Origin: a virus
Lineage: Duplodnaviria > Heunggongvirae > Uroviricota > Caudoviricetes
Length of the DNA stretch: 8,692 bases
IMG/VR virus record: IMGVR_UViG_2778261591_000007
Strand: one strand, 5' to 3'
Positions within the stretch are counted from its first letter, which is position 1. Each line of letters opens with the position of its first letter. Of this stretch, positions 502 through 3,592 are shown piece by piece. A program made the position numbers and the translations under genes. The notes beneath the pieces are model-generated. The model was not told the origin of the DNA. It made no database searches and saw only the letters and a program-made list of their open reading frames with translations.

Positions 502-1425
502 TCAGTAGTTATGTACTGAAGGAGGTAATTCTTTATTCTTAAGTCTCATCCATGCGGAAAGATTCGCTGGTCCGTCTGGCTCATTAATATCAACATCTCG
601 TGTGTGGTTTATTAAAACGTCTCTCGCCATTCCTATAACATACGAGAACTCATGACCGTAGTCGTAACATCTGCCGGAATAGTTCGATTGAATTTGTTTT
701 AGCGCCGGATACAATTCGCGGAATAATGCCTGTGAGCGGTTGGCATAATCCCATAACCATACGAGGCTGTTTGCTTCTTTTGCAGAAAGCTCGTTGGTTT
801 TCTTCTCTTGTTTGCAGATGAACTCACCTTCAAGCGGAACGCGAGCTGCAAGTGACAGTGCTTCGGTAAACTGCTCCTCACTAATTTCTTTGTACGAACA
901 TCCAAAATGGGATTTCAGTGACGACCACATGGTGATCATCGCCTTAGCCTGTTTTTCTTTTGGCAGAGACTGACCGCGACTCATGACGAGTTGTTTAATG
1001 GCTTCCTGCTGTTCAGTGGTGATTTTACCCTGCAACGCCTTTTTAGCTTTGCGTGGGTTAACTACATGGCCTTTAGTCCAGTACTCATAGAGCACATCGT
1101 CACACTCTTCCTGATACTGGATTACCTTGTCGCGGATTTCAGGGCGGACTTTGTTTGGACTGATGCTGTTCAACCAAGCTGCCAATTTTCGTAAAGCCAT
1201 ACAAATCATGGCTTGCACCCCACCGGCAGAAGGTATGGTGATTTCCACCATACCCTTCGAGAAGCGTTGAGAAATCTTCTTATGTTGAGATTTCCAGTCT
1301 AGCCCCATTCCCTCAACGATAGGTTTCATTGGGGTGTACGGTTCGCCGTTGTGATTGACAACATAAAGCTCTGCGCCGTGGAATGGTACATTGATAGTAG
1401 ATACTGCTGTTGCTATACTTTTCAC
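502..1425 (-). CDS. ant: Phage antirepressor (Ant-like)
   Basis: 307-aa ORF starting at GTG 1425 with an AGGAA Shine-Dalgarno upstream. N-terminus (…INVPFHGAELYVVNHNGEPYTPMKPIVEGMGLDW…) resembles the antirepressor N-terminal domain as I recall it. Size is close to P22 Ant (about 300 aa), and it sits immediately downstream of arc and divergent from mnt, exactly as in P22 immI. Confidence 0.7.
   Translation of the reverse strand: MKSIATAVSTINVPFHGAELYVVNHNGEPYTPMKPIVEGMGLDWKSQHKKISQRFSKGMVEITIPSAGGVQAMICMALRKLAAWLNSISPNKVRPEIRDKVIQYQEECDDVLYEYWTKGHVVNPRKAKKALQGKITTEQQEAIKQLVMSRGQSLPKEKQAKAMITMWSSLKSHFGCSYKEISEEQFTEALSLAARVPLEGEFICKQEKKTNELSAKEANSLVWLWDYANRSQALFRELYPALKQIQSNYSGRCYDYGHEFSYVIGMARDVLINHTRDVDINEPDGPANLSAWMRLKNKELPPSVHNY
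1391..1419 (+). promoter_or_regulatory. Candidate sigma70 promoter (Psar-like) pointing antisense to ant
   Basis: -35 TTGATA (1391..1396), 17-bp spacer, -10 TATACT (1414..1419) on the plus strand inside the 5' end of ant. Predicted start about 1424..1426, at the ant start codon. Confidence 0.4.
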
Positions 1426-1499
1426 GTCGTTAATTCCTATGCGTGGTTTTACGATACCGAAGCCCTGACTGTTCCCGCAGTTGGGGCTTCACTGTTTTG
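1424..1499 (+). ncRNA. sar: Candidate sar-like antisense RNA covering the ant ribosome-binding site and start codon
   Basis: Near-consensus promoter (1391..1419) followed about 35 nt later by a long hairpin (1459..1490; 13-bp stem with two G-U pairs, 6-nt loop) and a U-rich tail (TTTT at 1495..1498, then GATTTCTTTG). Predicted transcript about 70 nt, complementary to the ant SD and start. Matches the known P22 sar arrangement (68-69 nt antisense RNA in the arc-ant region). Confidence 0.4.
1459..1499 (+). terminator. Intrinsic terminator hairpin for the candidate sar RNA
   Basis: GAAGCCCTGACTG / CAGTTGGGGCTTC stem around loop TTCCCG, followed by ACTGTTTTGATTTC on the plus strand. The U-tract is separated from the stem by 4 nt, so efficiency is uncertain. 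Confidence 0.4.
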
Positions 1500-1658
1500 A
1501 TTTCTTTGCCGCATCAAGCATCACTTCTGAAAACGTGCGCTTGCCACTGAATACTCTTTCTCTTCTCAATTTTTCGTTCGTGCCAAATGATTCGCCATGA
1601 ACAAAATTTGGTCTTAAAATGGTAATCGCAATCTCTTTGACTACTGCATCCAAGCGAA

Positions 1659-1811
1659 TCACACCGTTACCCCCTCTCTCTTCAGGCTGTCTATCAGGCG
1701 CTTGATAACCTCTGAGTTAAACGACCTGCACTCTTCCTTTGCCCTGCTACCGATAGCATCCTTTAACGACTGCGGCATCCTTACCAAAATCTTACTTATT
1801 TCTTTCTCCAT
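1659..1811 (-). CDS. arc: Arc-like ribbon-helix-helix repressor
   Basis: 50-aa product MEKEISKILVRMPQSLKDAIGSRAKEECRSFNSEVIKRLIDSLKREGVTV. The core (MPQ…RSFNSEV…KREG) matches the P22 Arc RHH signature (MPQFNLRWPREVLDLVRKVAEENGRSVNSEIYQRVMESFKKEG). Start taken as ATG 1811..1809 with GGAGGG 5 nt upstream; the ORF-track start at 1847 is a TTG without an SD. Confidence 0.8.
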   Translation of the reverse strand: MEKEISKILVRMPQSLKDAIGSRAKEECRSFNSEVIKRLIDSLKREGVTV

Positions 1812-1847: not shown

Positions 1848-1876
1848 AAGATAGCAAAGTGAGTATATCTAGTCAA
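1848..1876 (-). promoter_or_regulatory. Candidate Pant promoter with an inverted repeat in the spacer (possible Arc operator position)
   Basis: Minus strand: -35 TTGACT (plus 1871..1876), 17-bp spacer, -10 TATCTT (plus 1848..1853), about 35 nt upstream of the arc start. The spacer and hexamers carry an inverted repeat AGATA(1849..1853)-N12-TATCT(1866..1870). In P22 the Arc operator lies between -35 and -10 of Pant. Confidence 0.45.
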
Positions 1877-1893
1877 AATTTTTTTGCATACAC

Positions 1894-1905
1894 TTTGATA
1901 TCAAA
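1894..1905. promoter_or_regulatory. Perfect 12-bp palindrome TTTGATATCAAA in the mnt/arc divergent intergenic region (candidate operator)
   Basis: Read directly from the sequence; exactly self-complementary. Lies 18 bp upstream of the predicted Pant -35 and about 20 bp upstream of the mnt start (1926), where Pmnt and its operator would be expected. Confidence 0.45.
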
Positions 1906-1925
1906 TTGAATACCAAAGGTGTGAT

Positions 1926-2174
1926 ATGGCAAAGGGTGTGTCAATTTCTCCAACTACGGTAAGAATCCCTGAATCTTTACGCGAGGCTCTTTCTGTCAGA
2001 GCATCAAAAAATGGTCGCTCTGTTAACTCCGAGATCGTCATGATTTTGCAAGCCGCGATTGATGAAGATAGGTCGCCAAAGTCAGTTGAGTCATTTGCTC
2101 AGCAAGAAGCTGACAAATTCAAAGAGGCGCTGCTTGAGACGCTAAAGACCATGTATGGTAAGGATGAAAAATGA
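1926..2174 (+). CDS. mnt: Mnt-like ribbon-helix-helix repressor
   Basis: 82-aa ORF, the same size class as P22 Mnt. N-terminal RHH region (TVRIPESLREALSVRASKNGRSVNSEIVMILQAAI) parallels the P22 Mnt motif (…FRMPMEVREKLKFRAEANGRSMNSELLQIVQDAL). AAGGTG Shine-Dalgarno at 1916..1921. Divergent from arc-ant as in P22 immI. Confidence 0.8.
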   Translation: MAKGVSISPTTVRIPESLREALSVRASKNGRSVNSEIVMILQAAIDEDRSPKSVESFAQQEADKFKEALLETLKTMYGKDEK

Positions 2175-2745: not shown

Positions 2746-3144
2746 CTATCTATCAAGCCATATAACAAAAAATGTCGATCCAAGACGATAACCAACCATG
2801 GCTTTCAAATCATCAAATCTAAAAGCCAAGAAATGATCTACGTCTTCCGTTATATGACTGGGGATACCTGCTTTAATTGCACCCCTTGCAATCTTCTCAA
2901 ATCCAAGCTTATGCCTACCTTGCTGCTTAATATCTGCCCATGTTAGTTGACTTAATCTGTATAATTTATCAGCTAAGCCAGCTTTCTCATCTTTTTGGCA
3001 TTTCGTTATGCAGTGAGAGCTTTGGATGTAACAGAATGAAAATTTCGGTTTCTTTTGATCTGAATTCCCCCCTGACTGCGGCCCTAACTTTAACTTACCT
3101 GTAGATTCAGCAGGGGGGATAATCCTTTTAGATTTTCTTGCCAT
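2746..3144 (-). CDS. Hypothetical basic protein (132 aa), downstream partner of the Panacea-like gene; candidate toxin/effector
   Basis: ATG 3144..3142 lies 4 nt after the upstream gene's stop (TAACGAGATG), suggesting translational coupling. Product has a Lys/Arg-rich, probably disordered N-terminus (MARKSKRIIPPAESTGKLKLGPQSGGNSDQKKPKFSF), a Cys/His cluster (CYIQSSHCITKC) and a C-terminus ending …HFLAFRFDDLKAMVGYRLGSTFFVIWLDR. No family recognised. The longer track ORF (to 3219) starts at TTG and overlaps the upstream gene by 71 nt, so the ATG start is preferred. Confidence 0.5.
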   Translation of the reverse strand: MARKSKRIIPPAESTGKLKLGPQSGGNSDQKKPKFSFCYIQSSHCITKCQKDEKAGLADKLYRLSQLTWADIKQQGRHKLGFEKIARGAIKAGIPSHITEDVDHFLAFRFDDLKAMVGYRLGSTFFVIWLDR

Positions 3145-3148
3145 CTCG

Positions 3149-3592
3149 TTAGTTAATCCGAGTTGCAAAGTACTCTGCCATCTCCTTAGAACTAATTTCA
3201 GAACCACCAACACCCTCAATATAGTTTGATCTCCATGGTGACTCTTCGTGTGTCATGTTCCTCAGTTTCCAGGCAGAAAATTGCCCAAAAACATCCCAGA
3301 CTTCTTCTAATAGCTCTAACTGTTCTTCGCTGAATTTTTCAGCATCAAAAGACTCTGGAGAAGGGATAGCACCATTACCATATTGTTTATAACGGTGATA
3401 AAGCTCAGGGACAACAGGGCCATGCATCCAAGCTTCCATCTTATTCTGAAAAAGAGGCTCGCCAAGCAACGCCAATGAAAAACCCTGAGCATAGTAAACA
3501 AGCTTTTGTAATTTTAAATTAGAGATTGCGTCACCGCTATCCTCGTCACACCGCGACAGGAAGTAGTCGGCGACATCAAAACAAGTAAGCAT
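3149..3592 (-). CDS. Panacea-domain (DUF4065, SocA/GepA-like 'phage-associated protein') antitoxin-type protein
   Basis: Start taken as ATG 3592..3590 with GGAGG 7 nt upstream (the track start is a GTG two codons earlier). The segment DVADYFL…ISNLKLQKLVYYAQGFSLALLGEPLFQNKMEAWMHGPVVPELYHRY matches the DUF4065/Panacea signature as I recall it (T/N-KLQKLLYYAQ…G.PLF…EAW.YGPV.P.VY). Confidence 0.7.
   Translation of the reverse strand: MLTCFDVADYFLSRCDEDSGDAISNLKLQKLVYYAQGFSLALLGEPLFQNKMEAWMHGPVVPELYHRYKQYGNGAIPSPESFDAEKFSEEQLELLEEVWDVFGQFSAWKLRNMTHEESPWRSNYIEGVGGSEISSKEMAEYFATRIN

Follow-up and report, generated by a model that had tools for sequence, protein, structure and literature searches.

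A predicted sar antisense RNA gene opposite the ant ribosome-binding site in a P22-like Escherichia coli prophage

On sequence evidence, the segment opposite the start of the antirepressor gene ant in a P22-like E. coli prophage is a sar antisense RNA gene, a homologue of P22 sar and not simply an analogue. It lies in the window, that is, the whole stretch of 8,692 nucleotides analysed (IMG/VR record IMGVR_UViG_2778261591_000007), whose relevant features are listed in Table 1. The Rfam sar family (RF00262) matches 1427..1493 of the plus strand with 76.6 bits at a gathering threshold of 43 (E 4e-15), and the match extends over the full model, positions 1-68 of 68. When the whole window was searched with the models of all 4227 Rfam families, sar alone reached the gathering threshold, and a covariance model built in this analysis scores 91.6 bits over 1426..1499. 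An earlier note on this DNA, made from the letters alone, had called the RNA sar-like; the likeness holds, but the label is too cautious, since the RF00262 match makes the element a true member of the sar family. The P22 sar architecture proposed in the same note agrees with the Rfam match, the register of the promoter, the gene context and the identity of stem-loop II. The gene is predicted with high confidence to be functional. The sar family is already known and the position is the usual one; this copy is simply unannotated: RefSeq/PGAP carries no ncRNA annotation at the sar locus, and the PGAP CDSs are the same as those in the window. The sar region is present in 342 of 5426 complete E. 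coli genomes (~6%).

Table 1. Positions of the predicted sar gene and of the surrounding immI features in the window
Feature	Position	Strand	Basis and remarks
ant, antirepressor gene, 307 aa	502..1425	-	Pfam P22_AR_N, E 1e-45; P22_AR_C, E 6e-30
Psar -35 hexamer TTGATA	1391..1396	+	5/6 to consensus; within ant codons
Psar extended -10, TGcTATACT	1411..1419	+	promoter scan; overlaps Ant codons 3-5 (Ser-Ile-Ala)
ant translation initiation region, predicted sar target	1423..1438	-	SD AGGAA 1438..1434, 8-nt spacer, GTG 1425..1423
Predicted sar RNA, ~70-73 nt	1426..1498	+	P22 register, RF00262, own covariance model
Stem-loop I	1426..1455	+	fold; 1426-1430 pairs with 1451-1455
Stem-loop II, terminator hairpin	1459..1490	+	14 bp, loop UCCC
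Terminator tail ACUGUUUUG	1491..1499	+	overlaps last codons and stop (1491..1489) of the 57-aa ORF
57-aa ORF between arc and ant	1489..1662	-	PHROG 17642, E 1e-43, unknown function
arc, 50 aa, first gene of the Pant transcript	1659..1811	-	Pfam Arc PF03869, E 5e-12
Candidate Pant, TTGACT-17-TATCTT with TG	1848..1876	-	promoter scan; faces arc, the 57-aa ORF and ant
Mnt-like ribbon-helix-helix repressor gene	1926..2174	+	Pfam Arc-like domain, E 3e-10; divergent from arc

The candidate sar promoter, Psar, lies within the first codons of ant and is convergent to Pant, as expected of a sigma-70 promoter of sar. The promoter scan has confirmed the near-consensus antisense TTGATA-N17-TATACT that the earlier note had placed in the 5' end of ant: the two hexamers, both inside the ant CDS, together match the consensus at 10 of 12 positions, with the -10 hexamer at 1414..1419 and the TG of the extended -10 at T1411 and G1412. 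Psar is the best promoter-like site in the window and the sole one reaching 10/12, and sites with at least 9/12 matches are not above chance (12 found, 15.2 expected). Of 82 unique homologous regions, 66 have the TATACT hexamer and almost all have the TG, and both are kept where the N-termini of Ant otherwise diverge, residues 3-5 of Ant being fixed as Ser-Ile/Leu-Ala. A -35 of TTGATA or TTGATT is found in the ant module of the type shared by the window and CUS-3, including a few recombinants with a Kapi1-type stem I. As a random control, 300 first-order Markov sequences were generated with the composition of the window; 5 of them have a promoter scoring 10/12 or better and, within 15-90 nt downstream of it, a stem of 10 bp or more and a T-run, and so the architecture is uncommon and is not decisive by itself; it is the Rfam match that settles the identity of the element as sar.

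The predicted RNA starts at G1426, 7 nt past the -10, as set by the register of P22, and ends within the U-run at 1495..1498. Over 1426..1499, 74 nt in all, the minimum-energy fold has two stem-loops (-29.8 kcal/mol, z = -5.45), and none of 200 dinucleotide shuffles is as stable. Stem-loop I has inner pairs 1432-1433/1449-1450 and 1436-1437/1445-1446 in addition to its outer stem, and contains the anti-SD UUCCU (1434..1438) opposite the ant SD AGGAA. Stem-loop II, GAAGCCCUGACUGU-UCCC-GCAGUUGGGGCUUC, includes 7 G-C and 3 G.U among its 14 pairs and is the longest terminator-like stem in the window; together with the U-run detected behind it, it gives the RNA the terminator-like 3' stem-loop of a sar. 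The long hairpin with a U-rich tract had been read correctly from the raw sequence, and its distance of about 35 nt from the promoter was a fair estimate, since the hairpin begins 33 nt after G1426 and 40 nt after the -10. How efficiently the tail terminates is uncertain, because the run of four U residues is short and ACUG stands between the stem and the U-run.

The structure belongs to the sar strand. On the ant mRNA strand the three G.U pairs of stem-loop II turn into A.C mismatches, and the ant mRNA leader folds at only -21.8 kcal/mol (z = -1.66). The U-run follows the hairpin on the plus strand only. The failure of the G.U pairs on the ant mRNA strand and the one-sided U-run indicate that the structure is selected in the antisense RNA. 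A terminator on the sense strand was considered and rejected, as the hairpin is not followed by a T-run on the minus strand and the sense fold is weak; the hairpin should not terminate transcription that runs from arc into ant.

The Ant protein belongs to PHROG 245, 'anti-repressor Ant', and PGAP also annotates its GTG start at 1425. The earlier note had the RNA spanning both the SD and the start codon of ant. The SD is indeed covered, but the start codon is not: since the P22 register places the 5' end at G1426, the predicted RNA covers the SD and the spacer and reaches only as far as the base before the start codon. The GTG arises from a C at plus-strand position 1425, immediately before the predicted sar start (position -1). 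ATG stands there in the 81 other unique relatives, among them three IMG/VR loci (L037, L071 and L133) to which the sar region of the window is otherwise identical over 137 nt. The GTG start is expected to lower the translation of Ant, and may be a sign that selection on the ant/sar module is relaxed or has changed in the prophage.

The surrounding immI region is complete and of the P22 type, with a Mnt-like gene, Arc, a small ORF and Ant; the RNA is antisense to the ant ribosome-binding site within an mnt/arc/ant region, where sar belongs. The 'ant moron' layout of immI has been described for P22 and epsilon34 (PMC2629481), and the gene order and strands of the window match those of both phages, in which sar is annotated. 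The Mnt-like gene occupies the position of P22 mnt, and both its product and Arc, which PGAP names 'Arc family DNA-binding protein', are ribbon-helix-helix proteins. The candidate Pant corresponds in position to Pant/Pmnt in P22 and epsilon34, and the divergent intergenic region between arc and the Mnt-like gene (1880..1925) should also hold the Arc/Mnt operators and Pmnt. On the minus strand, the strand of the late operon, genes for DNA-ejection proteins lie upstream of ant and the tailspike gene lies downstream.

The 57-aa ORF between arc and ant is absent from the earlier note and has no Pfam match. Its GTG start and the stop of arc share bases (GTGA), an overlap suggestive of translational coupling. 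It is the end of this ORF, and not that of arc as in P22, that the 3' end of sar overlaps. Extra ORFs of differing lengths are found at the same place in phiv205-1, 611R6, Emek and EC.P3, and not in P22 or epsilon34.

The window differs at 7 of 8692 positions (242, 2748, 5419, 8648, 8660, 8678 and 8688) from a prophage of E. coli OkiPb01711 (NZ_AP042673.1; L013) that adjoins tRNA-Arg and intS, and so derives from a closely similar, though not the same, genome. Beyond the Mnt-like gene, 3149..3592 on the minus strand encodes a protein with a SocA/Panacea antitoxin domain (Pfam E 8e-25) and is followed on the same strand by 2746..3144 (PHROG 8366, unknown function); within the ant moron the two may make up a toxin-antitoxin pair or a defence pair. 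At 2748 a C of the near-identical RefSeq genome is replaced by A in the window, and this places a stop 7 codons early in 2746..3144.

Alignment with P22 sar, which the earlier note had proposed as a check, gives identity in 56 of 75 columns for the whole RNA and in 31 of 32 for stem-loop II. The curated P22 record has Psar as GTGTTA-17-TATACT followed by ATTCAT and the sar start, and the window aligns with this arrangement base for base. In that record sar itself begins directly behind the complement of the ant ATG and runs on for 6 nt beyond the hairpin, a register that the window keeps. Both RNAs are ~70 nt long and follow a TGcTATACT extended -10 in ant codons 3-5, and P22 sar has the same two-hairpin fold (-29.5 kcal/mol, z -5.26). 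The 5' arm, comprising stem-loop I and the anti-SD, is the less similar part, with 21 of 35 columns identical (60%), one additional nucleotide in the window and compensatory changes in the pairs. The two phages also differ in the -35, where TTGATA of the window is closer to consensus than GTGTTA of P22, in the ant start, which is GTG in the window and ATG in P22, and in the tail, which is ACUGUUUU in the window and AACUUU, no better as a U-run, in P22.

CUS-3 and related prophages of the E. coli K1/UTI89 type are closer still on the ant side, being 99% identical to the window from inside ant through stem-loop II, with the same -35, -10 and stem-loop I; sar is unannotated there. CUS-3 has an ATG start of ant and a different sequence after the hairpin, AACTTTCTGCTC, and its record shows no annotated gene from ant to mnt, with neither arc nor a small ORF marked and only a 'boundary sequence' label. 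The window is thus CUS-3-like to the left of the hairpin, whereas its arc side comes from a phiv205-1-like module, with which its type of tail travels.

For the comparative analysis, the pattern of stem-loop II was used to retrieve more than 120 IMG/VR loci, which together with 12 phage records gave 82-83 unique 137-nt regions with 30 distinct 5' arms. A plain MAFFT alignment of 30 sar variants analysed with RNAalifold recovered stem II alone, because differing linker lengths put stem I out of register, and it was replaced by an alignment guided by a covariance model, which was built from ten in-register sequences and aligned 32 distinct relatives. Searches with this model at E <= 0.01 gave three spurious weak matches, and a threshold of 1e-6 was used instead. 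In the model-guided alignment of the 32 relatives, 99.5% of the pair cells hold standard pairs, and five pairs are changed on both sides, four of them among the five outer pairs of stem I, where 98% of the cells are paired. The covariance model itself fitted this alignment to the structure; the observed covariation values are reached by none of 500 shuffles, and sliding the partners by 1-3 columns lowers pairing to 32-44%. The near-invariance of stem-loop II is partly circular, because the loci were collected by its pattern. TL-2011b, found by BLAST outside the pattern, has an altered apex of stem II in which the change is compensated, showing that this stem can vary with compensation outside the pattern-selected set. 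The TL-2011b variant (L004, 1047..1121) combines the stem-loop I type of the window with a rebuilt, fully paired stem-loop II apex, GACGGUCUGGCCACCGUG. The 5' arm varies from 30 to 34 nt among the relatives, with indels that are not multiples of three.

It is very unlikely, given the state of the locus, that the element is a sar homologue that has lost its function, a decaying relic in a resident prophage that regulates nothing. The GTG start, unique among the 82 unique sequences, and the premature stop in the neighbouring gene 2746..3144 relative to the closest RefSeq genome would fit such decay. However, all the elements of sar are intact: the -35 is better than that of P22, the extended -10 has not changed, and pairing is complete in both stems. 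C1425, by which the sar region departs from the three IMG/VR loci, falls neither in the promoter hexamers nor in the predicted RNA. The genes ant and arc and the Mnt-like gene have their full length, and their domains are matched strongly; GTG is usable as a start codon with an SD 8 nt upstream. Next to no probability attaches to the plus strand encoding a small protein, either from the 49-aa ORF with a GTG start at 1351..1500, which appears in the mechanical ORF list, or from a 9-codon ORF beginning with the AUG at 1439 within the RNA. The 49-aa ORF begins before the promoter, the AUG inside the RNA lacks an SD and does not occur in sar sequences of the P22 type, the indels of the 5' arm break the reading frame, and the Rfam family is one of non-coding antisense RNAs, so that a protein-coding reading was rejected.

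The hairpin could also be conserved mainly for another reason, as a recombination 'boundary sequence' or for the processing or stability of the sense arc-ant mRNA, with an incidental promoter match. Its place at the joint where modules from the ant side and the arc side are reshuffled in almost every combination, and the CUS-3 label, are what such a role would lead one to expect, and the location of the -10 in the conserved Ser-Ile-Ala codons of Ant means that coding constraint could mimic conservation of a promoter. Yet the G.U pairs make the hairpin strong on the antisense strand only, where alone a U-run follows, and stem I covaries, which a recombination linker does not need. The P22 RNA, moreover, has been characterised experimentally (cited in PMC2629481, PMC7968456 and PMC12197685) and sequenced (PMC13397905). 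A linker role and a sar role can coexist, and a main function other than sar is highly improbable, more so than loss of function.

If the predicted sar gene acts as P22 sar does, the sigma-70 promoter Psar inside the first codons of ant would fire against the direction of ant and produce an RNA of ~70 nt (~1426..1498), ended by its own intrinsic terminator of stem-loop II and the U-run. The RNA would be perfectly complementary to the ant leader on every arc-to-ant or late-operon transcript, because it is cis-encoded. Stem-loop I would present the anti-SD UUCCU, and pairing would cover the SD and the spacer of ant up to the base before the start codon, thereby blocking 30S subunits so that Ant would not be made. 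In P22, sar is an RNA of 68/69 nt that pairs with ant mRNA and blocks translation initiation (PMC12197685; PMC7968456; PMC2629481), and it is required to establish lysogeny properly despite the Arc and Mnt repressors (PMC12197685; PMC7968456). The P22 sar studies of Liao et al. 1987, Wu et al. 1987 and Schaefer & McClure 1997 are cited in PMC2629481, and sar reads have been detected in small-RNA sequencing of P22 (PMC13397905). P22 sar acts also on transcripts from the late promoter (PMC12111858). In the window, too, ant shares a strand with the late ejection genes before it and the tailspike gene after it, so that the same reasoning would hold, and sar would limit Ant from transcripts beyond the control of Arc and Mnt, including late-operon read-through towards the tailspike gene. 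For this copy, the synthesis of the RNA, its ends and the repression of ant are put forward by analogy with P22. The literature search on transcriptional interference between Pant and Psar returned nothing usable.

Other small RNAs resemble sar in part. The c4 RNA of P1/P7, an antisense-type repressor of their ant genes, derives from an upstream part of the same transcript and works on target sites complementary to it; it is not a convergent cis-antisense RNA. Lambda OOP RNA acts on the 3' end of cII through RNase III cleavage. OOP RNA and IS10 RNA-OUT are short convergent transcripts with their own promoter and terminator that pair with a target mRNA, as sar does, but their sequences and targets are unrelated to it. 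Both are classical cis-antisense RNAs (OOP: PMC12197685; RNA-OUT: reference list of PMC7968456), and RNA-OUT likewise blocks ribosome binding. Like sar, the c4 RNA is small and phage-encoded, and by pairing around the ribosome-binding site it prevents synthesis of the antirepressor (PMC12197685). The c4 RNA is not homologous to sar, and membership of the window's element in the c4 family was rejected on the outcome of the Rfam scan.

Across the relatives, five main types of stem I on the ant side occur with more than ten types of tail on the arc side in nearly all combinations, with the joint in stem-loop II, in agreement with the 'boundary sequence' label of CUS-3. A speculative and rather doubtful extension is that sar has two parts, stem-loop II serving as the recombination joint and the types of stem-loop I defining specificity classes for silencing the ant of relatives. 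If this were true, at least five stem-loop I types would travel with the ant allele, each pairing fully only with its own ant leader, and the type would decide whether a sar silences the ant of a co-infecting relative, analogous to the heteroimmunity of P1/P7 c4. The near-consensus -35 and the unique GTG start would then make the Ant output of the window unusually low.

The value of the finding is mostly one of annotation, with little beyond: a classic phage regulatory RNA was correctly readable from raw sequence, and RefSeq omits it in this E. coli prophage despite the presence of the region in so many complete genomes. The comparative set provides a clean case of covariation in a cis-antisense RNA and also shows a structured RNA element doubling as a mosaic recombination joint. 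The predicted sar, the extra ORF and the GTG start bear on the control of the antirepressor, and hence on induction or anti-immunity.
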